44,597 nucleotides of DNA from a virus, in the IMG/VR virus record IMGVR_UViG_3300029996_000048, positions 1 to 44,597 of that record; one strand, written 5' to 3'. Each line of letters starts with the position of its first letter. Within the stretch, counting starts at the first letter, position 1. The position numbers and the translations under genes are program-made. Below the pieces are notes generated by a model. The model made no database searches. It was not told where the DNA came from and saw nothing but the letters and a program-made list of their open reading frames with translations. Positions 2,619-44,597 of this stretch are shown piece after piece.

Positions 2619-3114
2619 CCTTCATCGCCTCCAATGCTTTCTCCGCCTCCTCGCGGGTGAGGAATGTCCCGATGTATTTGTGCATCCCCATTTTGCCAAT
2701 AAGCTTTACCGCTTCGGCCACGGTGTTTATTTTGAGCGTTGCAATTACAGGGTTATCGGGATTCCCCGCAAATAGCCGATACACCGTATCTCCCACCTTG
2801 CACGGAAGCACCACCACGCGTCCATCCTTGTCGGCCTCGTCCAGCTCACGCAGACGGTCATCCAGCAGCCAGTTTTTCACATACTCCCAACTGCAATTAT
2901 AATCAATTCCAACATCCATCAGGATATTAGACATTCGTTTAGACTCTTCCGGCGTCAGCCCCGTTTCCTCGTAGGCTGCAAGACGCTCCACACACGTCTG
3001 TCTGTACGCGCTTTTTGCCACACGGTCATTGCAATCATTGCCACTGTAACAACCTGCCGGATAATTGTAATCCGCTGCGCCGCTTGCGAGATATTTTGTC
3101 AATCTCTCCATCAC
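2611..3114 (-). CDS. hypothetical phage protein
   Basis: 167-aa ORF with ATGA coupling to the upstream gene. Confidence 0.55.
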   Translation of the reverse strand: MMERLTKYLASGAADYNYPAGCYSGNDCNDRVAKSAYRQTCVERLAAYEETGLTPEESKRMSNILMDVGIDYNCSWEYVKNWLLDDRLRELDEADKDGRVVVLPCKVGDTVYRLFAGNPDNPVIATLKINTVAEAVKLIGKMGMHKYIGTFLTREEAEKALEAMKDE

Positions 3115-3860
3115 TCCAACTCCTGCATCTTACTAATTACTTTTCGGATCACATCGCCGCTGTAAGCGTCTTTCGTCAACTCCAAAAACTCCGTCAGCGT
3201 CATCATGCCATGCTCGAGGTCAACCCCGTGATCGCGGGCAAACTGCTTTCGCCCCATGTCACACGAACCGGTCAAGCGGTGATGCCAGTCGTAAAAGTAC
3301 TGCGTCGGATACGTTCTTCCATCGTCTGTCTCGCGCAGGAACATCGCAATGCGTTCATCTTCCGGCATATCCTCAAACAGCTTATCTCGAAGAGACTCCA
3401 TTGCTTCTCGCAGCGTTTCGCCGTGTGCAAAAACATTTCCCTGCTTGACTATATAGCACGGTGTGATCGTCAAATCATTGTTCACGATTGCTCCATGCGC
3501 GGTGTTGCCGCGCATGGAGCGAATCAGTGTGTTTACGCCGTCAATTCGATAGACCGGTTCTCCATTGAAACTTTTAATGCCGTCGCCGGAGCCGTCGCCG
3601 TCGCCGGAGCCGTCGCCGTAGCCGTAGCCGGAGCCGTCGCCGGAGCCGTAGCCGGAGCCGTCGCCGTAGCCGTAGCCGGAGCCGTCGCCGTAGCCGTAGC
3701 CGGAGCCGTCGCCGTAGCCGGAGCCGTAGCCGGAGCCGGAGTCGTAGCCGGAGCCGGAGCCGGAGCCGTCGCCGGAGCCGTCGCCGTCGCCGTAGCCGGA
3801 GCCGGAGTCGTAGCCGTCGCTCACAGTCAGAAAGGCTTTGATCTTCTCATCAAGCGTCAT
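3111..3860 (-). CDS. hypothetical protein with N-terminal (G/S/D/Y) low-complexity repeat
   Basis: ATG at 3860 overlaps the upstream stop (ATGA). MTLDEKIKAFLTVSDGYDSGSGYGDGDGSG...(about 80 aa of GYG/DGS)...IKSFNGEPVYRIDG..., then a globular C-terminal domain. Confidence 0.65.
   Translation of the reverse strand: MTLDEKIKAFLTVSDGYDSGSGYGDGDGSGDGSGSGSGYDSGSGYGSGYGDGSGYGYGDGSGYGYGDGSGYGSGDGSGYGYGDGSGDGDGSGDGIKSFNGEPVYRIDGVNTLIRSMRGNTAHGAIVNNDLTITPCYIVKQGNVFAHGETLREAMESLRDKLFEDMPEDERIAMFLRETDDGRTYPTQYFYDWHHRLTGSCDMGRKQFARDHGVDLEHGMMTLTEFLELTKDAYSGDVIRKVISKMQELE
3579..3822. repeat. imperfect tandem repeat (6/12-nt units gccgta/gccgga/gccgtc) encoding the GYG/DGS tract
   Basis: Direct reading of gccgtagccgtagccggagccgtcgcc... 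iterated over about 240 nt. Confidence 0.9.
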
Positions 3861-4147
3861 CTCTTCCACTCCTTTACGCCTCGAATCGACGCAGATGCCG
3901 CATCCGTGCACAGGATAATCTGGATTGCCCCCAGCACGGTCATTTCCGGGACCGTCACGGTAAAACGGCAGTTGCCCGGTGCTTTTGTGCCGTCCTGCGC
4001 CAGCTGCTCCACGGCGCACGCGCCGTCCCAGCTCCACAGCTTACGCACATCAGTCATGGTGACTTCGGAGCCGTTTCTCTCCTTGATCTTGCCGAAAAAT
4101 ACGCCTGCGCGGTCGCAGCGAACGATATAGTCCTGATTGTTGTTCAT
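3857..4147 (-). CDS. hypothetical phage protein
   Basis: 96-aa ORF (MNNNQDYIVRCDRAGVFFGKI...) with AGGAGGAA RBS upstream. Confidence 0.6.
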   Translation of the reverse strand: MNNNQDYIVRCDRAGVFFGKIKERNGSEVTMTDVRKLWSWDGACAVEQLAQDGTKAPGNCRFTVTVPEMTVLGAIQIILCTDAASASIRGVKEWKR

Positions 4148-21109: not shown

Positions 21110-24100
21110 TTACGCCGCTTTCTTCCTCATGATTGCAAGCTGCTCGTCCACCCGCGCGCGGTTCCAATGGCGAATGCTCTTTCCGACGCCGAAGTCCTCA
21201 AAGAGGGCTGCACGCTGTTTATCGGAAAGCCCCTTCTGCTGATAAACAAGCTCCATGATCTGCAAGCCTTCACTGTTGCTGATGGTGTCACCGTTTTTGT
21301 CCTTCAGGCTTTTGATCCCGCCTTTCGCCAGATAGAGCGCAATATACTGGGCTTCTGAAACGCCCGTTTTTTTGACGGTATCTATGGCCTTTGCCGCCCA
21401 CCCGTCCGTTTGGTAATTGCTCACGCTCATTTTCCCAACGATGTTGGCATATTCGTAGGCTTTCGCAACGGCATCTGCCTTATCGCCGTCGCTCATGGAC
21501 TTATAGCTCGCAAGTCCCGTGAGCTCGCTGACGATCTTATAGGAAGTCTGCCCGCGCTTTGTGGCGTACTTGACGTATTCCTCGCCGGTCAACTGTTTGT
21601 TTTCCTTATTCACGGTAAAAGATTTCGGTGCGCGCTGCGGCAGGACTTTGGTTTCACCGGTCGCCTCATACAGGCGGCTCAATTCATCTTCCATTTTGCT
21701 GCCGCTTACCTTCGAGGTATACGCGGGATTCGCAAAATTGTTAAATGCCCGCGCGACCACGCCTCCGGAGTTTTCCGTGCGCCCCCATGCGTCGATAAAG
21801 GGAATCTGCCCGTAGTCAACGCCCGGAATACGCGCGCTGGCCTTGCCGAGCGCATATTGCATATCCGGCGTCAGGAATTTGTTCTTATCCGTATAGGTCG
21901 TCATGCGCTCGCTTTCGCCCGTGCGCTCCGCCTGCCCGAAGACCGTCGGGATACCCTGCGTCAAATAACTCGTCGCCGCGCTTGCTACCGCACTGGTTAG
22001 TGCGTTTGTGTCCCCGGAGGACGCATACCCCACCGCGTCAAAAACGTCGTTCAGGCTTTGCAGACAGCTCATGGAAAGAAGCGGGTCCGTCACGTTGCTT
22101 GCTGCCTGAAGCATATCACTCATAGTGAGATACCCGTTGTTCGCCTGCATTTGCTCGTAAAGGTTTGCCCCGACGAAAAACGGAAGCGCTTCCGGCGCAA
22201 GCCAATCCAGCGTAATACTCGTGCCATTTGGCAGCTCCATCGCATATTCCTGATGCCCTTGCAGCTCGTCGAACTTTTTCTTCTTCTCGTCATCACCGCC
22301 GCTGCCGCGAAGAATGCCCTCTTTCGCCATATAAAGGCCGAGCATCATCAGCCCCGTGCCGGTCAGACCGGCGGCGGCACGGTCGATCATTTCGGTCGCC
22401 TGCATATTACCCTTCTGCACCTGCACAAGGTCATAGCTTATGCTTTTGAGGAAACCAATAGGGCTGTATTCCACGCCGCGCACCAGAATGTTGGCTGGTG
22501 TCTTGCGGAACGGCAGGATTCCTTCGGCGAGGGTGCTTCCGAGGCGTTTCATCTTGTTATCCCCGCGGTATCTGCCGAGATCGGAGATCATCTGTGAAAA
22601 CGCATTGGTGTCTCGATAGGTTGCTTTCTGCGCCTCTCTGATCGCGTATTCGCGTGCCGCTTCAATGCCTTTCCCGCCAGCGACCTGCTCCGCGGTAATG
22701 CCATTTGCTTTGCAGAATTGCGCCAGCGCCGCCGCGTAATGCGGCTTGGAGAACCATGCGTCTTCCGCATCCAGCGCCGTGCTGTTAGATTTGCGCATCG
22801 CTTCCAGCAGCTTTGGTTTGAAGATCGTGCGCCCTTCCTCGATTTCCTGTCGCACATTGACATTATCATTGTACTTGCCGCTGCCGAGAGCCTGCTCGCG
22901 AATGTTGGCATAGTCACTCCATGCCGCCTTGATAAGCCCTGCGTCCTTCGTCGTCAGGATTGCCTTCGTGCGTCCGACTTTGCCGCCGCTCACCGCGTTC
23001 GCAGCGCTCTCAATGCCTGCGCCGATGACGTTCTTTACCGTGACAGCAGGAACAAATCCTACGTTGCCAACGATGTTGCGCACATGCGTGCGTGGATTAC
23101 CAAGCATCGAAAAGTAGCGCCAAGCGTTCCATTTGTCAATGAAGCGGCTCGGCATCTGTCTGCCGATATCGCGATAGATTTCCTTCATCGCCTCGGTGCG
23201 CGCATCGTCGTCCTTTGCGTTCAGGAACTTCTCAGCGAGGTCGCGGTCAATCTTCAGATCAGGGGCCTTTTCCCCGTACTGCTTTTTGAGATCTTCTGTC
23301 AAGTTCTCCACGCTGCGCTGCGCCGCATAAAGCTGCGTACCGGGGTCCTGCTGCTTGAGCAGCCGCGTTGCCTGCAACGCCTGTGCCGCATTTCTCTGGC
23401 GCTTTACGATGGTGTCGAGCACATCGATAGCTGTCTCCACATCACCGCTGTTTGCTGCATTGTTGTAGAGCGCCCAGCCAATCGCCGTATTCTCCTTGCT
23501 GATTCCCTCTTTGGTGGAATTTTTCCATTTATTCAAGGTCTTTTGCCAGCCTTCGGTTTTGATGCGGCTTTCTGCGTCACTGATGGCCTGCTTGTCCGTA
23601 TAGCGGTCGTAGGAGAAATCTCCTTTTGCCACCATTCGTTCCAACGTCGGCACCATTGCGTCCGGCGTTGCCTTTGCTTCCAGCACCGTGCGGATCGTGC
23701 GGCTGACGTATTTGTCGTCCGCCGTTTTCTTCGGCACTTGTACCTCTCGGTACGCGCGCTCGCCCGCAGGGATATATCCGTACTTCTCTTTCAACGCTTC
23801 ATAGTTCGCCTCGGGGATCTCACGGGAGAATGCCGCATCATTCACGCTGTTGACTTTTGCTAAACGGTCCGCCTCATCTCCGGCGATATATTCCACCGTG
23901 TTGACCCCGGCATCCTGCAATGCGGCTTTCAGCCGCTCGCTGCTATTGTCTGGGATAACGGCGGCAAGGACTTCATCGAAGCCAACGGCACGCTGGGGCT
24001 TTGCCTCAAAGTAGCCCGTAGGGATTTCCAGGGCCGCCTTAAAGATGCCTTGGATGTCCTGCGCTGTCTTGCTGCTGATTTTATACCCGTCAGCGGCAAA

Positions 24101-27100
24101 GCTCTTGATGATAGCATCCACGGTCTTTTTCCCGCCCGCAGCGTTCTTTAAGGCCGTGGCAGCATAGTCGTAGTCCATTGTGCCGCCGGTTTTCTTAACG
24201 ATTTTCCCCAGCACATTGTTGATGGCCTCGTCCACCAGCTTTACCTTTGCGTCGTATTCACTTCCTTCCTCAAGGCCCAGCCGCCCGCTGTCCGACTTGA
24301 TGTCCTGGATGCTTTTGTAGCTCGGTGTTGCAAGAGCCTGGATGCCGGTAGCCGAAACACCCCAGAAGCCTTGTCCGCGTTCGCTCTGCGCATCCCGCAT
24401 CGCCTTGACGATATTCTCCAAAGTGTAGGCATAGTGGAGCTGCCCCCATGCACGCCTGTTCCCGTTGCGGTCGATGACCTCCTTGCCGTTGTAAAGGCCC
24501 TTTCGGCCCTCTACGCCGTCAAAAAGGTTGTGCAACCACGCCTCGTACTTTGCGGGGTCAACCGCTTCACGGATAGCCTTGTGCGTTGCTTCCGCGTCAA
24601 ATTCCATCCGGCGGGTCTCCGGCCCGTTCGCCAGGTAGTTCCTTGCGCGGACCAGCTCTGGCATCAGCTTCTTGGCGGGCAGGGCCTCGCTCTCAATGCC
24701 GTGTTCAGCCAGATAGCTGCTGTACGCGGCCTCCAGTTCTGCGCCGTGTGCCTCTACCCAGCGTTTTCGCGCCAGCATGGGGCTTTCGCCACCGACCGGG
24801 CGCATCTCCCCGATGACATCCTCCCCCAGCCTTTGGATAAGGTGGTCATACAGCTTTATTTTTTCATCATCCAACCGCGTCACGGTCTCCGTGTTGATGT
24901 TTTGCACCATGTTCTGGCCACTGTCTGCCAAGAACAGATTCATCATCTGGGCATCATCTTTGTGTCGCTCCAGCAGCCCGGCCTCGCCGCCGTTGCTGTT
25001 CAATGCGTCCTCCAGCTCGTTGGCATAATTGTAGAGGGGGCGGGCATTGTCGTAGCCGACGCGTTTCACCAGCTCGTAGTATTTGCTCCGCAGTCGTTTC
25101 TCCGCGTCGCTGTTCACCTCGTATTCCAGGCGTGGAGAAGTCGGCGTCCAGGCGTCCCCGCCGTAAACCTTGTTCCGGCTGTCCGCCTGCGGGTCGATGG
25201 TGGCCTTGTTGAACACCAGGGAGATGGGGCCGTACTTGGAATGGCCCTCGCTGGCCTTGACCACCGCAATAGAGGGCATGGGTAATCCGCCCAGCTTCAG
25301 CGCGGACATGATGCTGGACTCATCCTTGTTGTGGACGGCGATCAGCTTGTCAGTCTCTTCGACCGGCGTTTCCATGCTGAACTTCAGCTTGACATTTTGT
25401 ACGCCACGAGATAGACTATCTACAGAAGCATCCCCCCGCAGAGCGCCGCTGTTCGCAGCGGAAGAGCCGTCAATTTGGGGGATGCTTCTTTCTTGCATCT
25501 GCCCAATATTATAGATCATCTTACCGTCTGCACTCTGCGCTGTCGAGATTGTGATCTTGTAATACTTCCCATCAAAATCTTTGAAAAACGCCGTGCGATA
25601 ATTCCACCCGCGACTTGCCATGCCCCCATGGCGGCTGTTATGATCTACAACGTTTCTATCCCCCTTGACAGAAATCTGCGCCAACTCGTCAATATGCGAT
25701 GCTGCATTTACTTTTCGCTCAAATACCGCCTCGCTCATAGTACGCCCATCGCTGGTGTGGTTGTCGCTCAGTTTCCCTGCCGAGGTCGCAGTCAGGGCCA
25801 ATTCGTCGCCATCCGCGCCGATAAGCTTAACGTCTTGTCCACGGCGGATTTTTCCGTTAATATAGTCTTCCAGCTGTTCGCTCCAACTCTGCGGGTCATT
25901 TCCAAAAATGACCTGTCTGTCGGCGCGGACATATTTTTTGCCATCGGCAGCCTCTTCAATGCTCGCCCTGCCATTTATTTTGCTTGGCGGCGCACGCGTG
26001 CTTTCCTGCGCAACGGTTTCACTCTCCACCTTGATATGTGCAAGAAGGAATGCTGCCGCATCGCTGATCTCGCTGTCAGCGAAAATGTTCATATCGCCGA
26101 GGCTATCACAAACGATCTCTTCCCAGATTTCCTGCGCCGTCATTTCGGTGCCGGCATAAGCATCTTCATACGCCGTGCAGAGGGAGTCGACCTCACCGCT
26201 GGTAAAGGTCTTATCGATGCGCGTGCGTACCTCGTTCAAATCGACTTCGCCCTTTGCGATCATATCATGTCCGGCCTCATGCCGCATGATCTGGTACGAC
26301 GTAAATTCCGGATGATCCGCACGGATAAATACGCGGTCACCTGAAACGTAGCCGCGCACCTGGAACGCTTTCCCGCTCTTGTCACGGAACGTCAGATTAT
26401 TCCCGGCAAAAAACGTCACGCGCAGACCGCGCTCTTTGGCGAGGTCCTTCGCCTTGCGCATTTCCGCCGTCTCGTTCTTCACAAGATAGACGCTGTCATT
26501 GACCGCGCCTCTGCCGATGCCGAAGCTCGCAGTGCTTACTTTTTCTCCATAATCGAGCGCAGCTGCTTCGCTGTCTGCGAAGTGTCTCCCTTTCTTCCGG
26601 CTCTGATCTCGTCCTGTGCTTTCTTCCACGCCTCGTACTTCTCCGCGGGGATTCGCACCGTTATCCCGTTCGCTGCCTTCGCGTAAATGTACTGCTTCTC
26701 CATGTTCGGCTCCTTCCTGCTGCGCGTATTCTGCGCGCAGCTCGTCCATTGTCACCTCTCCTGTCTCGAGGGCAAGGCGGTTGTCAGTTACATACTTGTC
26801 AAAGCCGGTCGCCTGCGCCTCTGCGCCTGCGATCTGCTGCTTTGCTGCAATATAATCCGTATTGGGGGAAACCGCCGTTCCATCAACAGCAGTGTACCCA
26901 TTCGTCAGCATGTCGTCAAGAACGATCTCGAGCGTTTTCGCCGCTTTGACGTTCTCCTGCCCGTTATCGTTGATGATGCGCTGCGCTGCATCAATGATTT
27001 GCGTGCGCGTCAGACCCTCGTCCATCGCCTTGCGCATGGCGGGGGTCTCGAATATCTGATTGCTTCGCTGGTATCCGTTTGCTGTCCGCTGCCGTGCACC

Positions 27101-28801
27101 CTTCTGCTGCCCGCGTGAAAGGCTCATATCGGCGATACCTGCGATCTGCTCTGCCGCCGCGCTATAATAGCTGTGCAGCTCGGGGTGGTCGAACTGGAAA
27201 GCGTTCACGTTTCTGCCCGATACGTTTTCCTTCGTGCGGCTGTCAATGTGCTCGCCCGTTCCTGCCGCTTTCTTCGCGTCGTTTTGCCCGGCAATATAGC
27301 CTGCATAGGCCGTCTCATTCGTCGGGTTCGGGTTCGCCTTGCCCTCCACTCCCGCGTTGTAGGCGGGCAAAAAGTCCGCGACGTGCTGCGCCGTGTCCTT
27401 GCCATCCTGGTACGAGCCGCGAATCGCCTTTCGCCCGCTCTCACCGATCATGCTGTCGTAGCGCGCAAAGAGCCGGTCAGCAATACCGTTCACAATCTCC
27501 GCGTCGCTGCGCGTCTCTGTCTGCGTCTTCGGCAGCTCGGTACGACTGTCATAATAGCGCCCACCTCGGTTGCCGATGGCCTCCACGCCGCCGCCAAGCC
27601 CGCCGAGGATACCGCCAACGAGGAAGTCGTTCAGAATTTCCGATGCTTCCAGCTCGCTATAGCTCCCACCAAGCGTCTTGCCGTTATAGATCATCTGCAA
27701 GGCAGGCTGAATGAGGTCTTCGATGGCCTCCTCGCCGCCTTCTTCCAGAAACGACAATGCGATCTTTCCCGCCGCGCTGCGGGTCAGATTCTGCGTCGCT
27801 CTTTCGATGACGTCATCAAGGAAGCCCTTGCCGAACATCTTCTTGAACGGTGCTGCCGCGTTGCCGATCTTCTCGGTTGCCACGCTGAGTGCACCGCTCG
27901 CAAGGCCATAGTTGACCTGCTGCTCGCGCGTTGCGCCCGCTCTGCGCGCCTGCTGCGCGCCTCCACCCGCGCTGCGCATGAACATCGGGAAGAGCGCGCT
28001 GCCGCCCATAAAAGGCGTGAGGGCAATATCCATCCCCATCTGCGCACCCGCGACGCCCGCGTCAACGGCGAGTTGTCCGGCCTTGCCGAGCCCGCTTTTC
28101 GCCTTGTTGATATCCTTTGCGCCGCTGTCGGCCAGCCTGTCAGCGATGTCATAGGCTCCCACTGCGGCCTTTTCCCCGCTCTCGATGATCTTGCCGTACT
28201 TCTCACGCTCGCTGCGAGCGATGGCAATCGCCTCTTTCGTGTCGGCAATATCCTGCGCCGTCATCGACGGATCGCTCAGCGTCGCTTCCAATGCCGCAAT
28301 CTGCTGGTCCAACGTCTCCGCCTGAGCGCGATAGACCGGTGACATCGCTGTGCCGCCCTGCCCCTGCGCCACCACGCCGCCGAGATTGACAAAGCCCGCG
28401 CCATAGGTTTTCGCCGCGCCCTTGACGGTGTTGCCGACGCGCTGCGCGACCGTGGGGGCTTTTACCTCCTGCACGTGCTGTTCGAACGCTTCTTTGCTCT
28501 GGTAGTTCTTCGCGTCCTTCTTCTGTAAGGCCCCCTGCGCAAGATTCTGCGCAAGCGCGCTTTGATTTTTTGGCGTCACGACATTCTGCCGCGTGCGGAA
28601 CATGGGGCTGCTCGCCTTTGCGGGAATCGTTGCCGCCTTGCTCGGTTGCACTGTCGGCTTCTTCTGCACCACATTGCCCGTAGGGGATGTGTGCTGCACA
28701 TCCCCCGTTCTCACAAGCCTGCCGTGCGTGCCGGTTCCAACAACCGTTGTCTGGCCCTTGCTCGCTTCCACTTCCGGATTCGCTTTTACTAATCGTCCCA
28801 T
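21110..28801 (-). CDS. 2563-aa polyvalent virion/ejection protein with zincin HEXXH motif
   Basis: One uninterrupted ORF closes the structural operon. Gly/Ala-rich hydrophobic N-terminal third; IMRHEAGHDMI (HEAGH at 26267..26281); a ...YYKITISTAQSADGKMIYNIG module; hydrophobic helices in the C-terminal third. Confidence 0.8.
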   Translation of the reverse strand: MGRLVKANPEVEASKGQTTVVGTGTHGRLVRTGDVQHTSPTGNVVQKKPTVQPSKAATIPAKASSPMFRTRQNVVTPKNQSALAQNLAQGALQKKDAKNYQSKEAFEQHVQEVKAPTVAQRVGNTVKGAAKTYGAGFVNLGGVVAQGQGGTAMSPVYRAQAETLDQQIAALEATLSDPSMTAQDIADTKEAIAIARSEREKYGKIIESGEKAAVGAYDIADRLADSGAKDINKAKSGLGKAGQLAVDAGVAGAQMGMDIALTPFMGGSALFPMFMRSAGGGAQQARRAGATREQQVNYGLASGALSVATEKIGNAAAPFKKMFGKGFLDDVIERATQNLTRSAAGKIALSFLEEGGEEAIEDLIQPALQMIYNGKTLGGSYSELEASEILNDFLVGGILGGLGGGVEAIGNRGGRYYDSRTELPKTQTETRSDAEIVNGIADRLFARYDSMIGESGRKAIRGSYQDGKDTAQHVADFLPAYNAGVEGKANPNPTNETAYAGYIAGQNDAKKAAGTGEHIDSRTKENVSGRNVNAFQFDHPELHSYYSAAAEQIAGIADMSLSRGQQKGARQRTANGYQRSNQIFETPAMRKAMDEGLTRTQIIDAAQRIINDNGQENVKAAKTLEIVLDDMLTNGYTAVDGTAVSPNTDYIAAKQQIAGAEAQATGFDKYVTDNRLALETGEVTMDELRAEYAQQEGAEHGEAVHLREGSERDNGANPRGEVRGVEESTGRDQSRKKGRHFADSEAAALDYGEKVSTASFGIGRGAVNDSVYLVKNETAEMRKAKDLAKERGLRVTFFAGNNLTFRDKSGKAFQVRGYVSGDRVFIRADHPEFTSYQIMRHEAGHDMIAKGEVDLNEVRTRIDKTFTSGEVDSLCTAYEDAYAGTEMTAQEIWEEIVCDSLGDMNIFADSEISDAAAFLLAHIKVESETVAQESTRAPPSKINGRASIEEAADGKKYVRADRQVIFGNDPQSWSEQLEDYINGKIRRGQDVKLIGADGDELALTATSAGKLSDNHTSDGRTMSEAVFERKVNAASHIDELAQISVKGDRNVVDHNSRHGGMASRGWNYRTAFFKDFDGKYYKITISTAQSADGKMIYNIGQMQERSIPQIDGSSAANSGALRGDASVDSLSRGVQNVKLKFSMETPVEETDKLIAVHNKDESSIMSALKLGGLPMPSIAVVKASEGHSKYGPISLVFNKATIDPQADSRNKVYGGDAWTPTSPRLEYEVNSDAEKRLRSKYYELVKRVGYDNARPLYNYANELEDALNSNGGEAGLLERHKDDAQMMNLFLADSGQNMVQNINTETVTRLDDEKIKLYDHLIQRLGEDVIGEMRPVGGESPMLARKRWVEAHGAELEAAYSSYLAEHGIESEALPAKKLMPELVRARNYLANGPETRRMEFDAEATHKAIREAVDPAKYEAWLHNLFDGVEGRKGLYNGKEVIDRNGNRRAWGQLHYAYTLENIVKAMRDAQSERGQGFWGVSATGIQALATPSYKSIQDIKSDSGRLGLEEGSEYDAKVKLVDEAINNVLGKIVKKTGGTMDYDYAATALKNAAGGKKTVDAIIKSFAADGYKISSKTAQDIQGIFKAALEIPTGYFEAKPQRAVGFDEVLAAVIPDNSSERLKAALQDAGVNTVEYIAGDEADRLAKVNSVNDAAFSREIPEANYEALKEKYGYIPAGERAYREVQVPKKTADDKYVSRTIRTVLEAKATPDAMVPTLERMVAKGDFSYDRYTDKQAISDAESRIKTEGWQKTLNKWKNSTKEGISKENTAIGWALYNNAANSGDVETAIDVLDTIVKRQRNAAQALQATRLLKQQDPGTQLYAAQRSVENLTEDLKKQYGEKAPDLKIDRDLAEKFLNAKDDDARTEAMKEIYRDIGRQMPSRFIDKWNAWRYFSMLGNPRTHVRNIVGNVGFVPAVTVKNVIGAGIESAANAVSGGKVGRTKAILTTKDAGLIKAAWSDYANIREQALGSGKYNDNVNVRQEIEEGRTIFKPKLLEAMRKSNSTALDAEDAWFSKPHYAAALAQFCKANGITAEQVAGGKGIEAAREYAIREAQKATYRDTNAFSQMISDLGRYRGDNKMKRLGSTLAEGILPFRKTPANILVRGVEYSPIGFLKSISYDLVQVQKGNMQATEMIDRAAAGLTGTGLMMLGLYMAKEGILRGSGGDDEKKKKFDELQGHQEYAMELPNGTSITLDWLAPEALPFFVGANLYEQMQANNGYLTMSDMLQAASNVTDPLLSMSCLQSLNDVFDAVGYASSGDTNALTSAVASAATSYLTQGIPTVFGQAERTGESERMTTYTDKNKFLTPDMQYALGKASARIPGVDYGQIPFIDAWGRTENSGGVVARAFNNFANPAYTSKVSGSKMEDELSRLYEATGETKVLPQRAPKSFTVNKENKQLTGEEYVKYATKRGQTSYKIVSELTGLASYKSMSDGDKADAVAKAYEYANIVGKMSVSNYQTDGWAAKAIDTVKKTGVSEAQYIALYLAKGGIKSLKDKNGDTISNSEGLQIMELVYQQKGLSDKQRAALFEDFGVGKSIRHWNRARVDEQLAIMRKKAA

Positions 28802-35507: not shown

Positions 35508-37460
35508 TTATTGAAAGTACCAGTTGATAGCGTAGTTCTCGGTGGGCGTGGTCTCCGATGCAACCAGCGTCTGCTTGGTGATGTTGCCGCTTGCGATATA
35601 GTCGCTGCCGCGCGTTGCCGCCACCAGCCCGCCCGAGCCGTTGCCCTTGATGAGAGAGGTGGTGGAGGGCACGTTCACGGGGCCTGCGGGGCCCTGCGGG
35701 CCGGTCGCACCGGTATCGCCTTTCTCGCCCCGCTCGCCCTGGTCTCCCTTGGGGCCTTTGATGTTGACCGTCGCGGGATTCGCAAGCCCGCCGTCGTTCG
35801 TCCAACTCAGGTCTCCCGCCGCGGACACAGCAGGGGTAAAGGTCGCACCTTTCGCGCCGTCCGCACCGGCAGGGCCCTGCGGGCCCGTCAGGCCTTGCGG
35901 GCCGGTTTCACCTTGCGGACCAGTCTTGCCCTGCGGGCCCTGTTCACCCTGCGGACCCCTTGGCCCCTCTGGTCCGGTATCTCCCTTCGCGCCGTCAGTG
36001 CCGGCAGGCCCCCGTGCGCCCGTGTCGCCCTTCGGGCCCTTGAGGTTCACGGTCTGCGGATTCGCCTTGCCGCCGTCGTTCGTCCACGACAGGTCGCCGT
36101 CGTCGCTCATGCTCGGCGTGAACGTCACGCCGTCACGTCCGTTTGTCCCGTCCTTACCCGGCGCACCGTCTGCGCCGTCTTTCCCAGGCAGGCCGTCCGC
36201 GCCCTTTGCGCCGTCCTTGCCGGGGGCTCCATCCGCCCCGGCAGGGCCTTGAGGACCAGTCTCGCCGGGATCGCCTTTCGGGCCCTGCGGACCCTCGGGC
36301 CCCGTGTCACCTTTCGCGCCCTGCAAGGGGCCGTTGTTGATGAACTCGCCGGTAATACCGTCGAAAATGTAGATGTCGTAGGGCTCCGCCGTGCCCACGC
36401 CGTAGGCATCGCCCGCCGCTGCGGTCGCTTTCTGCGCGGCGTCCAGCGCAGCCTTCGTGCCGTAATAGCCCAGCACCTTGAAGCCTTTGCCGGTGTCCCC
36501 TTTGGGGCCTGCTGGCCCCGTCTCTCCTTGCGGGCCGGTCTGCCCCTGCTGGCCTTGTTCGCCCTTCGGGCCGCGCGGACCTTCGGGGCCGGTCGGTCCG
36601 GTCGCGCCGATGTCACCTTTCTCTCCTTGGGGGCCGGTATCGCCCTTGTCGCCTTTCAGCGCGGCAAGCTGTGCCGCCGTGAAGTCGGAATAGGTAAAGG
36701 CATCGCCCTTGTCGCCCTTTGTGCCCTGCGGGCCAGCGGGGCCAATCTCGCCTTGAATGCCCTGCTCTCCCTGCGGGCCGCGCGCGCCGGTTTCACCTTT
36801 GGGGCCCTGCGGACCGGTCGCGCCGGTTGCGCCGGTCTCGCCTTTTGGACCCTGTGCGCCGGTTGCGCCCGTGTCGCCCTTGGGGCCGGTCGAGCCTGTG
36901 TCGCCCTTTGGTCCCTGTGCGCCGGTGTCGCCCTTGGGGCCGACCTCGCCCTGCGGCCCGGTCGCGGCAACGCCCGTGTCGGCAAAAGCGCCCGCCGCGG
37001 CGTCCCACTTGAACCAGTTGCCCGTGGTCTCGTCGACGTATGGCATCTTGGAAACCGCCGTCTCCGCATCCGCCGCCGCCCGCAAAACTTCATCGACCCA
37101 GCTTTGATAGGCCGGAGGCGGTGCCTCTCCGCTGTTTTCCAGCGTTTCGCGCACGCGTGTTTTATATATCTGGCTCTTCACAATGGTATCGCCAACGGTA
37201 TAGCGCAGCTCTGCCGCGCCCTCACCGGCCACCGCCGTATCAACACTCGATACCAGCCACACGAGCGCGCCGTCTTCTTCTGTCACCGTCACGGGATACG
37301 GCTGCGCATCGCCGTTTCGCTGCACAATCAGGCTCGCCACGCCCTCGCCATAGCCCTCGCGCCACTTTCCCAGCACGTCAAAGACGACCTTGCGCGCCTG
37401 ATTCTCGCCCCTGCGCCCGAGCTTGATCTCTTCGAGCGCGTAAGCATTTTCAATAACCAT
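35508..37460 (-). CDS. collagen-like (GXY) tail/head fibre protein with BppU-like N-terminal domain
   Basis: Several long G-X-Y tracts ([22 protein letters not shown]...). The N-terminus [12 protein letters not shown]...PYPVTV resembles BppU_N. An internal duplicated non-collagen module is present. Confidence 0.8.
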
Positions 37461-42777: not shown

Positions 42778-44228
42778 TCAGTTGTGTTGGAACCACGCGT
42801 ATCTGTCGTAGCTCGGCGTATTGATGTCCAGCGGGTCGTACGAGACCAGCTTCGGCGGCTTATTTACCCGTGCCGCAATGGGATTCTCCATGCACACATA
42901 GCGTGTCATGTCGTAGATATGATCCTCCTGCTCGGTGTTCACGTCCTCAACGTCCTTTTCGTCGTAAACGAGGTTTGGCACCGTGCGAATGAAATTTTTG
43001 CACGTATCGAAGATATACAGCATCGGAACGCCGTTCTCATCGAACGCGAATCGGTTGTGCAGCTGCATCTTACCGTCGATGCGGGCGTTATCCCCCTTCT
43101 CAAAGTAGACACGCTCGCGCTCAAAGAGAGCGCCGATGCTCTCCGTGCCCTGCGTACCCCAAATGGCGGGATCGCCCACACGGAAGATGCTCCTCCCCTT
43201 GAGATTTGGGTCTTCTGCCTCAATGCGCTTCATCTCGCGGGCAACCGCCGTCGGCTCCATCTTCACGCCCTCGTTCGGCGTGCCCGTGCAGCCGTAATAT
43301 TCCCGGATGTGGTAGAGCCTCCTGTCTTGGTCGACCGCAAACCAGCCGATGGCAAACGGCCTTGAATAGCCCCAGTCCATTGCGCACCAGATCGGCCACT
43401 CCTTCGGCACATGAAACGGCGCGATGACGTGCGTATTGATGCGGTCGCGGTAGTGTTCGCTGTCATTGCGCCACTCGGTAAACACCTGCCCGGAGAACGT
43501 ATCCCAATCGCCGTAGAGCAGTGCGTTCTTTTCTGCCTCCGGCATTGACGCAAGGCGCGTCAAATAGCTGTCGTCGTTTTTGAGCAGTATCTTATTGTCG
43601 AATACCGTGCTCGGCACGAAGATTCGGCTCTTCTGCCGATGTTCTTCGTGCCCATCCGGAAAGCGCACGACCGCATCCTCGCGGATGGTCCTCATCGGCG
43701 GCGCTGCCGTGATGAAACGTTCCTTGACCCATCCGTGCCCCACGCCGCCGGGGTTCGCCGTGCTGCGGATGTATACACGCGTCCCCGGCCCGTTCGGTCG
43801 GTTGCGGGAAAAGAGGTAGCTGTATTCCTCCCACGTAAAGTGGGTCAGCTCGTCGAATGCAATAAAGTCATACGCTTGGCCTTGATACTTGATTTTGTCC
43901 TTTGCGTACTGCATCGAGCCGAAGAGTATTTTCGCCCCGCTCGGAAATGTCCACGTGTGGCTGCTGCCGTTGTAGCGCGCGCCCGGATAAATACGCGGGT
44001 AGTAGTTCAGCGTCTTGTCAATGAGCTCGGCAAGCTGCGGGAAGGTCTTTCTCAGAATGATCGCCTTGTAATACGGGATATCCACCTGCCGCAATGCCTC
44101 GATGACCAACGCATCGGATTTCCCCCCGCCTAACCGGCTGCGCCGCCGTATAGAGCCTCATCCTCCCATCGGCTCATAAAGAGTGCCTGCTTGGGCTGCG
44201 GCTTCCATACCACGCTACGCTTCGCCAT
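42778..44228 (-). CDS. terL: terminase large subunit, reading frame interrupted inside Walker A (two ORFs: 44130..44228 and 42778..~44133)
   Basis: ATG at 44228 gives MAKRSVVWKPQPKQALFMSRWEDEALYGGAAG, then TAG (44130-44132). The -1 frame continues LGGGKSDALVIEALRQ...YDFIAFDELTHF (Walker B) to 42778. Confidence 0.85.
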
Positions 44229-44597
44229 TTGCATCACCTCCCGCGTCCTGCGGAACAGGCATTACCGCGGGCAGCTCTGCCACCCCGCACACGCTCTCTC
44301 CGCCGTCGTCCTTTTTCTCGTCATTTACCCAGCGGAAGTTGTATCTCAGGCTGAATTCCGCGCCACGCTGACCGTCTCGGTCGAAGAGGCGTTCCTCTGC
44401 GTAAGCCTCGATGTGGGACTTCGCGCGCGTAACCGTGTCAACGAACTCTTTCTTCGCCTGATAGTTCAGCAGCGCTTGACGGCTTGTAAATCCAAGCGCG
44501 AGCGCCAGCCCCGTCACCGTCGGCGGTCGCTGATGAATGATAAACGGCTGCCCGAATTTGTCGAGAATCGGCATCCCGTCGTCCCCGATGATTGGCT
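44215..44597 (-). CDS. terS: terminase small subunit, C-terminal part (start lies at window position 165 across the junction)
   Basis: PPTVTGLALALGFTSRQALLNYQAKKEFVDTVTRAKSHIEAYAEERLF is the typical small-terminase HTH region. Its stop overlaps the terL start by 14 nt. Confidence 0.8.
   Translation of the reverse strand, partial: PIIGDDGMPILDKFGQPFIIHQRPPTVTGLALALGFTSRQALLNYQAKKEFVDTVTRAKSHIEAYAEERLFDRDGQRGAEFSLRYNFRWVNDEKKDDGGESVCGVAELPAVMPVPQDAGGDANGEA

Follow-up and report, generated by a model that had tools for sequence, protein, structure and literature searches.

How does a phage make its large terminase subunit when the gene for it breaks off inside the codons of the Walker A motif (P-loop)? 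This question is raised by terL, the gene of that subunit (TerL), in the virus record IMGVR_UViG_3300029996_000048 from IMG/VR, which we analysed over its full length of 44,597 nt (positions 1 to 44,597; hereafter the window). On the minus strand the gene runs for 32 codons to an in-frame TAG, and the remainder of the protein is encoded in a different frame. An earlier reading of the letters of the window (the original prediction) had offered three explanations: a 5-nt skip from the glycine codon before the stop to a second glycine codon, a -1 frameshift, and a lesion that marks a dead gene or an assembly error. Our analysis leaves hardly any doubt that terL is functional and dependent on recoding at this site. 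The recoding event itself is quite probably a hop of the peptidyl-tRNA by 5 nt (+5) from GGU to GGC, and both statements taken together, that a functional terL would be joined by this hop, we hold to be probable.

The interruption of terL within Walker A

The features of the gene, all on the minus strand, are listed here; class A denotes the 5-nt form of the insert found in the window and its relatives.

44133..44228, minus strand: terL segment 1, coding for MAKRSVVWKPQPKQALFMSRWEDEALYGGAAG in 32 codons, from ATG 44228-44226 up to the take-off codon
44133..44135, minus strand: take-off codon GGT (Gly32), invariant in 112/112 class A loci
44130..44132, minus strand: in-frame TAG stop, the A-site codon at take-off, directly 3' of GGT and invariant
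44128..44130, minus strand: proposed landing codon GGC, which shares its first G with TAG
44128..44132, minus strand: TAGGC, 5 nt extra in the alignment with the intact homologues L167 and L170; the untranslated gap in the hop model
42778..44127, minus strand: terL segment 2, from the resume codon GGG 44127-44125 to TGA 42780-42778, GGKSDAL..., 449 codons
44158..44160, minus strand: TGA closing the segment 2 frame upstream of the site, 9 codons upstream of TTA

The ATG is preceded by GGAGG at a distance of 8 nt. Segment 2 reads TTA GGC GGG GGG AAA TCC ... in the -1 frame relative to segment 1 and codes for the remainder of Walker A, the ATPase and the nuclease domain (Pfam Terminase_6N, Terminase_3). 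Removal of T-A-G-G-C (44132-44128) gives a 481-aa protein beginning ...LYGGAAGGGKSDAL. This hop-joined TerL matches Pfam Terminase_6N (PF03237) at 7e-11, its Walker A agrees with that of intact homologues, and hundreds of intact TerLs match it at 74-80% identity across 96-100% of its length. Both hallmarks of a large terminase are present in it, namely an ATPase with a Walker A motif of the form G-x4-GK[ST] and a C-terminal nuclease domain.

This layout agrees with the original prediction, which had placed the break within Walker A between the minus-strand ATG at 44228 and the TAG at 44130-44132, had found the rest of TerL in a -1 frame open for only 9 codons upstream, and had recognised the start listed at 44109 as an internal TTG. 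Initiation at this TTG was rejected as a source of TerL, as it lies downstream of the Walker A lysine. The prediction was also right that the G6 run next to the site cannot explain the break; this run is not even conserved among relatives. Because TGA 44160-44158 closes the segment 2 frame, no alternative-frame start is available in the window. Across 118 class A loci this frame is closed upstream of the site in 49, including the window, and open in 67, toggled by a GAT/GAC change that is synonymous in frame 0. An alternative-frame start, as called for the two closest database proteins described below, was rejected, given the 49 loci in which the frame is closed without a start codon and its dependence on this synonymous change.

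The 8-mer GGTTAGGC occurs once in the window, against 0.85 occurrences expected by chance. The motif alone is thus not improbable, and its significance rests on position and conservation.

Recurrence of the insert and selection on terL

Exact-pattern scans found the GGT-TAG-GC core in 102 IMG/VR contigs from many metagenomes, in five contigs of metagenome-assembled genomes (MAGs) and in 10 further metagenome contigs. A second scan, in which the five inserted bases were left open and the flanking pattern was fixed, returned 104 loci from IMG/VR. Together with the hits in genome collections and the window this makes 112 loci, where the insert is TAGGC in 110 and TAGGT in two and the preceding codon is always GGT. 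With the same flanks, other indel lengths were represented in IMG/VR by one TerL with a single extra base and by no TerL with an insert of 6-30 nt. The single case, L245 (IMGVR_UViG_3300031998_007417), is a distant TerL with one extra C after GGT (EEILYGGAAG/C/GGKSDALL); it has no stop and no matched codons and is probably an error or a true pseudogene.

The interrupted TerLs form 11 clusters at 90% nucleotide identity, with divergence down to 62% amino acid identity; these lineage counts depend on the clustering chosen, and the statistics given below treat lineages as independent. The closest database proteins to the window TerL are P0001 (99% identity; cluster of 1757 sequences) and P0002 (90%), and the DNA of both carries the same GGT TAG GC. 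The alignment of terL from the closest relatives, which had been proposed as a check on the break, accordingly shows the interruption to be conserved. Of the 80 listed contigs, 36 are 41-45 kb long, that is, of full-genome length.

The TerL body shows ratios of nonsynonymous to synonymous substitutions (dN/dS, Nei-Gojobori) of 0.05-0.39 at dS values of ~0.5 to >2. Within clades in which every member is interrupted, dN/dS is 0.05-0.2 at dS 0.5-0.9, for example 0.064 at dS 0.92 between the window and L001, and 0.077 at dS 0.48 between L041 and L080. Synonymous sites are saturated between interrupted lineages. Over the 23 codons before the interruption, nonsynonymous differences (pN) lie far below synonymous ones (pS) in frame 0. 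Segments 1 and 2 are thus both translated and under selection, so some recoding event must join them.

That terL is dead, as a pseudogene in a defective or helper-dependent prophage, or that the break is a sequencing or assembly artefact, is very improbable: such a lesion would fit an essential gene whose catalytic P-loop contains a stop and a frameshift, and the search that found no cultured phage with the insert, but the identical insert is present in >110 independent contigs from many samples and assemblers, the all-interrupted clades show the low dN/dS values given above, the C-terminal part of TerL is full length in 93/95 complete loci with no secondary disruptions, other indels at the site are essentially absent, the remaining phage genes are intact, and the genome-length contigs with the insert are circular or without host flanks. 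Neither relaxed selection nor an accumulation of secondary lesions, the marks of a pseudogene, was observed. Strong purifying selection and recurrence in >100 independent assemblies refute the third explanation of the original prediction.

Two features of the database entries concern the calling of these genes. The gene calls for P0001 (L002:1768-3198) and P0002 (L001:1374-2804) use an out-of-frame ATG and have spurious N-termini (MEAAAQAGALYEPMGGRGSIRRRSRLGGGKS...), a systematic error in the annotation of an abundant gut phage gene. A further protein, P0055 (461 aa), encoded on a 66,933-nt contig, matches the window TerL at 100% identity from YDFIAFDELTHF on and carries ~100 unrelated N-terminal residues in place of the Walker A region; it represents either a chimeric assembly or a real fusion.

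A frozen core and matched glycine codons at the site

Among 49 unique sequences, numbered from the first G of GGT, the variable positions are -16, -13, -10, -7, -4 and -1, which are third positions of frame 0, followed by +10, +13, +16 and so on, which are those of the new frame. From 0 to +9 the sequence is frozen as G-G-T-T-A-G-G-[C48/T1]-G-G. The reading phase switches exactly at this core.

The take-off GGT, the TAG and the landing GGC are each found in 11/11 lineages, with one GGT landing variant within a cluster. Across the 112 loci the landing codon is GGC in 110 and GGT in two, and never GGA or GGG, so that the take-off and landing codons are matched (GGT to GGC or GGT) in 112/112 loci and 11/11 lineages. 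The two glycine codons that follow use all four GGN forms, with GGY in 41%, and against this background 11/11 GGY at the landing position has p = 5e-5. GGT is the rarest glycine codon of the window phage (11% of its glycine codons) and GGC the commonest; at the take-off position, GGT is used by 22% of intact homologues. GGU and GGC are both read by tRNA-Gly(GCC), the former by wobble and the latter by Watson-Crick pairing. The product of a +5 hop, YGGAAGGGKS, has the Walker A length found in 117/120 best homologues; the three exceptions comprise two mis-called interrupted genes and one chimera.

Based on these features, we propose the following course of events. The ribosome would translate 32 codons to GGU, whereupon UAG, which is read by release factor 1 (RF1) only and would be slow to decode, enters the A site. 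The peptidyl-tRNA-Gly(GCC), wobble-paired on GGU, would detach and re-pair 5 nt downstream on the cognate GGC, the first G of which is the G of UAG. Translation would then resume at GGG-GGG-AAA-UCC, 8 nt having specified one glycine, and the product would be a normal TerL with the canonical YGGAAGGGKS P-loop, whereas ribosomes that do not hop would terminate after 32 residues. The hop predicts the tryptic junction peptide WEDEALYGGAAGGGK.

Sister variants of the insert

A search that started from an HNH endonuclease gene (see below) led to the TerL of L256/L336, which reads GCC GGT TAG GGC GGC GGC AAG; here the insert is 6 nt long and the frame is kept. In all, four site architectures were identified, each inside the same stretch of four Walker A codons; the TerLs that carry them are as little as 32% identical.

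Class A: GGT·TA·GGC, 5-nt insert, in the window and 110+ other loci
Class A': GGT·TAG·GGC, 6-nt insert, in two lineages (L336, L342)
Class B: GGT·TAA or TAG·GGC or GGT, one codon later, 6-nt insert, in six loci of four lineages
Class C: GCN·TA·GCN, one codon earlier, 5-nt insert, in 10 loci

In every class the insert consists of a synonymous copy of the neighbouring codon plus TA, TAG or TAA, L346 excepted, and a hop to the synonymous copy yields YGGAAGGGK[ST] in all four. A stop lies directly 3' of the take-off codon throughout, as an invariant TAG in class A and as TAG or TAA in all the variants. Classes A', B and C have matched Gly-Gly or Ala-Ala pairs in 17/18 loci; in class C, the G of TAG and the next two bases form an alanine codon in 9/10 loci (p = 1.4e-4). 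Because the 6-nt forms keep the frame, a -1 or +2 shift would not rescue them. Readthrough would lengthen the product of these forms by two residues, and class B has TAA as its stop in four cases. Judging from these sequences, no single mechanism other than a peptidyl-tRNA hop would decode all four classes. The 5-nt skip to GGC put forward in the original prediction (product GGAAGGGKS) thus gains support from the invariant GGT, TAG and GGY in at least 11 lineages, from the Walker A length, and from the 6-nt and Ala-Ala variants.

Two class C loci were unusual in further respects. L346, which is the same locus as L311 (IMGVR_UViG_3300000115_005887), has a NUMOD4/HNH_3 gene upstream; its insert, described below, could be an error, a sign of a decaying gene or a tolerated mismatch. 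L350 (IMGVR_UViG_3300029822_000487) combines a 5-nt insert (GCT TAGCT GGC) with an apparent intein directly after the Walker A lysine, whose intein-like boundaries read GGGK/ALSLDTPIL...VPTHN/SVAQL, and two invasive or immunity elements thus lie within a few codons. The position of this intein next to the P-loop lysine marks the DNA as a hot spot for homing elements.

Other ways of decoding the site

Of the other recoding events, a programmed -1 frameshift at GGU_UAG retains a small share of probability. The ribosome would read TTA GGC GGG ... to give GGAAGLGGGKS, with a P-loop two residues longer and the tryptic junction peptide WEDEALYGGAAGLGGGK. Segment 2 does lie in the -1 frame relative to segment 1, AGLGGGKS still fits a loose [AG]x4GK[ST] motif, and shifting can be favoured by an A-site stop codon. 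However, the site has no X_XXY_YYZ slippery sequence, as had been pointed out in the original prediction, and no conserved 3' structure. The base before GGT is C in 34, A in 14 and T in one of the 49 unique sequences and never G, so tRNA-Gly would have to re-pair poorly on CGG, AGG or TGG. TTA is also rare in the window phage (14/538 leucine codons), and the longer Walker A is found in 0/117 homologues. The frozen third base of GGC beside free third bases in the following glycine codons would be left unexplained, and the 6-nt sister variants, which keep the frame, would be destroyed by such a shift. This second explanation of the original prediction is consequently disfavoured by the variable base before GGT, the lack of a conserved structure and the 6-nt variants.

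We consider a +2 frameshift or out-of-frame decoding in the A site, in which UA is skipped after GGU and GGC is read as a new codon to give GGAAGGGGKS with one extra glycine (tryptic junction peptide WEDEALYGGAAGGGGK), to be very doubtful: the frame arithmetic works and, to judge by a title of Weiss 1987 cited in PMC5009743, such events have been seen in synthetic systems, but the P-site tRNA would re-pair on UUA without any pairing, the extra residue is absent from all homologues, the third base of GGC should be free, contrary to observation, and the 6-nt variants would not be decodable.

Reassignment of TAG as a sense codon, as in code 15 phages, was rejected: the frame changes at the site, terS, the gene preceding terL, ends in TAG (44215-44217), which makes TAG an ordinary stop in this genome, and ARAGORN identified no phage suppressor or unusual tRNA in the window. 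The sole ARAGORN call, a tRNA-Arg(GCG) at 35656-35724 on the plus strand, is probably spurious, as it falls within the GXY collagen-like repeats of a 650-aa tail-fibre gene on the opposite strand (35508-37460).

Several observations weigh against the +5 hop. RNAalifold found no conserved RNA structure around the site in 12 lineages (-6.7 kcal/mol, covariation term ~0), the upstream Shine-Dalgarno-like element is not conserved across lineages (GGGAGGA in the main clade becomes CCGGAGT, AAAGAGT and others), and no lineage-specific nascent peptide was found at the site. Given that these three elements are missing, hop efficiency could be low, and synthetic short hops are inefficient. The insert TAGTT of L346 would pair a GCT take-off codon with the landing codon GTT, which is not synonymous with it, and is the sole exception to the codon match. 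The insert was not found in any cultured or deposited phage, and we infer the hop, its efficiency and its junction peptide from sequence. Among apparent cultured-phage leads, KE25 and fHy-Eco03 each proved to have one intact coding sequence, and the terminase of EC6 is split elsewhere, with its portal gene also split.

HNH endonuclease genes and the spread of the insert

Neither the link to HNH genes nor the breadth of the phenomenon was anticipated by the original prediction. The class A phage L041 carries a 175-aa open reading frame (ORF) between terS and terL with NUMOD4, HNH_3 and I-HmuI-like NUMOD domains, a combination that identifies it as a free-standing homing endonuclease type. Compared with L080, an otherwise near-identical interrupted phage, this ORF is a discrete 550-nt insertion with AGGGA microhomology at both junctions. 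Four other class A lineages have versions of it at the same position, 57-65% identical and with 73 invariant columns, such that an HNH gene lies directly upstream of the interrupted terL in 5/11 class A lineages. HNH genes of the same or other types are also directly upstream in L336, L337, L340/341, L345, L346 and L348. By a single detection method, an HNH gene was found <=1.5 kb upstream in 9/100 interrupted loci and in 0/91 intact loci among the matches listed for a broad TerL family (p = 0.0035); counted by lineage, it is directly upstream in 11/~25 interrupted lineages compared with 0/91 of the same intact loci (p = 6e-9). A search for related loci with the HNH alignment gave, among the matches listed, mostly distant HNH genes in other contexts, and only L256 and L311 were informative. 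The main-clade phage L035 has another kind of HNH gene (43% identity with the L041 type) at -2791 to -2456 from the terL site, where the window has an ASCH-like ORF (2055-2618).

The insert is also associated with recombination tracts that end at or surround the site. L041 and L042 share 96-100% identity with the intact L167 for >2.5 kb from the landing codon on; identity falls to ~66% in the 90 nt upstream, and no alignment is possible between the terS cores. In L062, main-clade DNA spans -830 to ~+300, the site included, and is followed by a TerL body resembling that of the intact L170, and L015 shares only -120 to +68 with L041. In sequence terms these tracts look like variable-length conversion tracts around a break at the site. 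We rejected the idea that the insert is tied to one upstream or downstream module, given that the ORF directly upstream of terL is of at least three kinds (the HNH gene or a member of either of two unrelated TerS families) and that many TerL backbones carry it.

The comparison of L041 with L167 also revealed an unusual arrangement between ~-1270 and -100. The two terS genes share their first ~20 codons (VRRKPGTDVPMTKASGGRPVRQT...) and last ~11 (...GVVLMPEVRDE), and their cores are unrelated, being GP3_package in one and HTH-type in the other, which resembles module exchange inside terS.

We lean slightly towards the view that the insert serves to protect terL from HNH homing endonucleases. It would disrupt the recognition or cleavage site of the free-standing I-HmuI-like HNH enzymes encoded upstream of terL in several related lineages. 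The DNA of Walker A may be so constrained that point mutations would hardly give immunity; an insert decodable by a hop would, we propose, confer immunity and leave the protein sequence unchanged. The lineage of the window keeps the insert although it has no HNH gene. We regard it as an even call whether this extends to many unrelated TerL lineages, each carrying a minimal 5-6 nt 'hop cassette' (a synonymous codon copy plus UA, UAG or UAA) in one four-codon stretch of Walker A as immunity against HNH enzymes, decoded by a +5 or +6 hop without an elaborate RNA signal.

Certain points count against an immunity role, which is drawn from a correlation and an analogy. The window's own clade (~95 loci) is without an HNH gene, HNH genes occur in only 9-10% of class A loci, and the 91 intact controls are those among the matches listed for a broad TerL family. 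Phages often have HNH genes beside their terminase genes for unrelated reasons, and generic phage mosaicism could give some of the recombination breakpoints.

An alternative, which we consider unlikely, is that the hop is real and the insert regulatory, setting a low TerL:TerS ratio or coupling TerL synthesis to RF1 or tRNA status, with the HNH link incidental. The presence of the insert in the window clade without an HNH gene would fit this, as would the finding of no revertant closer than ~80% amino acid identity; the terminase inserts of Hau3 have been proposed as regulatory (PMC10732093), and a preprint on gene 60 of T4 raises functions beyond immunity (10.1101/2022.08.31.505936). A regulatory role leaves unexplained, however, why inserts in unrelated TerL families cluster in one four-codon stretch of the most conserved DNA of the gene, why HNH genes are directly upstream in so many interrupted lineages and in none of the listed intact loci, and why conversion-like tracts are centred on the site; the L350 intein at the adjacent codon likewise marks a homing hot spot.

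Comparison with known systems

The closest parallel is T4 gene 60, in which a 50-nt translational bypass is found together with the mobA HNH cassette (Huang 1988; Bonocora 2011; 10.1101/2022.08.31.505936); the landing codon forms the end of the MobA element, and loss of the endonuclease with retention of the bypass is frequent (Bonocora 2011; 10.1101/2022.08.31.505936). The terL site shares with gene 60 a glycine take-off codon followed by UAG, a matched glycine landing codon, and the placement of a non-coding insert where an essential phage gene is highly conserved. As for mobA, an HNH gene is directly upstream in several terL lineages, an identity boundary falls at the landing codon, and the endonuclease appears often lost with the insert kept, which recurs in lineages whose close relatives lack it. 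By contrast, the terL gap is 5 nt (6 in the variants) rather than 50, and no take-off stem-loop, Shine-Dalgarno element in the gap or dedicated nascent peptide was detectable at the terL site. The codon pair is GGU to GGC, read by tRNA-Gly(GCC), rather than GGA to GGA, the gene is terL rather than a topoisomerase gene and has not been divided into two subunits that carry extra tails, and the terL-linked HNH enzyme, unlike MobA, is a 175-aa I-HmuI/NUMOD4 type. The window phage has no adjacent endonuclease of the kind that accompanies a MobA-like cassette, whereas some of its relatives do. We therefore view the terL site as an analogue and not a homologue of mobA/gene 60, of which it may represent a miniature counterpart.

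Inteins and group I introns with homing endonucleases occur in phage terL at the P-loop, as in surveys of mycobacteriophage inteins. They would share with the present insert the same Walker A target DNA and the removal of the interruption without a change to the protein; the difference lies in the removal of 5-6 nt at decoding rather than of a large element by protein or RNA splicing.

Synthetic stop-hops and +5 and +6 hops were described in E. coli reporters (Weiss, Dunn, Atkins & Gesteland 1987, as summarised in PMC5009743). In that summary, as in classes A, A', B and C, a stop is flanked by matching codons and 8-9 nt specify one amino acid, and the P-site tRNA is proposed to detach and re-pair with the stop in the A site; the terL sites differ in being natural, conserved under selection and located in an essential gene. 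According to the same 2016 review, no natural in-frame stop-hops were known, and shorter counterparts of gene 60 had long been presumed (PMC5009743).

The nearest terminase precedent is that of the Streptomyces phage Hau3 and prophage StrepC.1, with 10-nt UUA-led inserts (Smith 2013; PMC10732093). These too are short, frame-disrupting inserts in a large terminase gene that are absent from relatives, and the proposed bypass restores a conserved junction. Unlike the insert described here, they are 10 nt long, start with the rare sense codon UUA (bldA tRNA) and occupy other TerL positions; they were found in only 3/100 genes, were proposed to be regulatory, and no endonuclease link was reported for them (PMC10732093). 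The 'byps' of Magnusiomyces capitatus mitochondria (Lang 2014; Nosek 2015, as cited in PMC5009743) are, by that account, likewise many short mobile inserts in coding sequence that ribosomes skip; as presented there they differ in length (27-55 nt), in being GC-rich and mitochondrial, in their take-off and landing rules and in having no endonuclease association. A literature search of incomplete coverage found no published description of the present terL sites.

The window phage and its neighbouring genes

Bases 1-77 are repeated exactly at 44521-44597, and the window is therefore a circularly closed assembly of a 44,520-bp genome. It is the complete genome of a temperate phage. The host is probably a gut member of the Oscillospiraceae; the MAG contigs with the identical site are labelled Oscillibacter, Flemingiibacterium and Clostridia. 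Its genes include those for an integrase, an anti-repressor, RecE/RecT, a DnaC-like loader, methyltransferases and an endolysin. Also encoded are TerS, a portal of the P22 type, a major head protein, a decoration protein resembling Hoc, a fibre with collagen-like sequence, an internal virion protein and a protein of 2563 aa. The major phage genes other than terL are all uninterrupted. The gene preceding terL is the following.

44215..44597, minus strand: 3' part of terS (GP3_package family, PF16677); gene start at window position 165, parts 78-165 and 44215-44520

This gene runs across the circular junction and overlaps the start of terL by 14 nt, so that no HNH gene lies between terS and terL in the window phage.

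Two other genes attracted attention. The minus-strand gene at 3111-4037 codes for a 308-aa protein with a low-complexity (GSGY/GDGS)n stretch, which corresponds to a tandem array with a 12-nt period and ~27 units at 3531-3854. The 2563-aa protein is encoded by a single minus-strand ORF at 21110-28801, which makes up 17% of the genome and has PHROG 22978 (unknown function) as its sole match; it sits in the virion module of an apparent P22-portal-type phage without a recognisable tape-measure gene.

Significance

Natural translational bypassing has long rested on few cases, namely T4 gene 60 and its homologues, the yeast mitochondrial byps and the Hau3 candidate, and short matched-codon hops over a stop were previously shown in engineered constructs only. 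The terL set comprises >110 class A loci, ~28 lineages and four architectures in which take-off, stop and landing codon are visibly under selection in an essential gene, and it makes the rules of short hops directly testable. A practical consequence is that gene callers give the interrupted terminases wrong-frame N-termini or truncated starts, which affects the quality scoring of viral genomes and the TerL phylogenies of abundant gut phages. If the proposed decoding and the immunity role are both true, these sites would be the first natural, evolutionarily maintained stop-hops, and the logic of T4 gene 60, a homing endonuclease paired with a bypassed immunity insert, would be a general strategy in its smallest possible form. 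This suggests an escape route by which an invariant gene may evade a sequence-specific nuclease, through an insert that the ribosome ignores.

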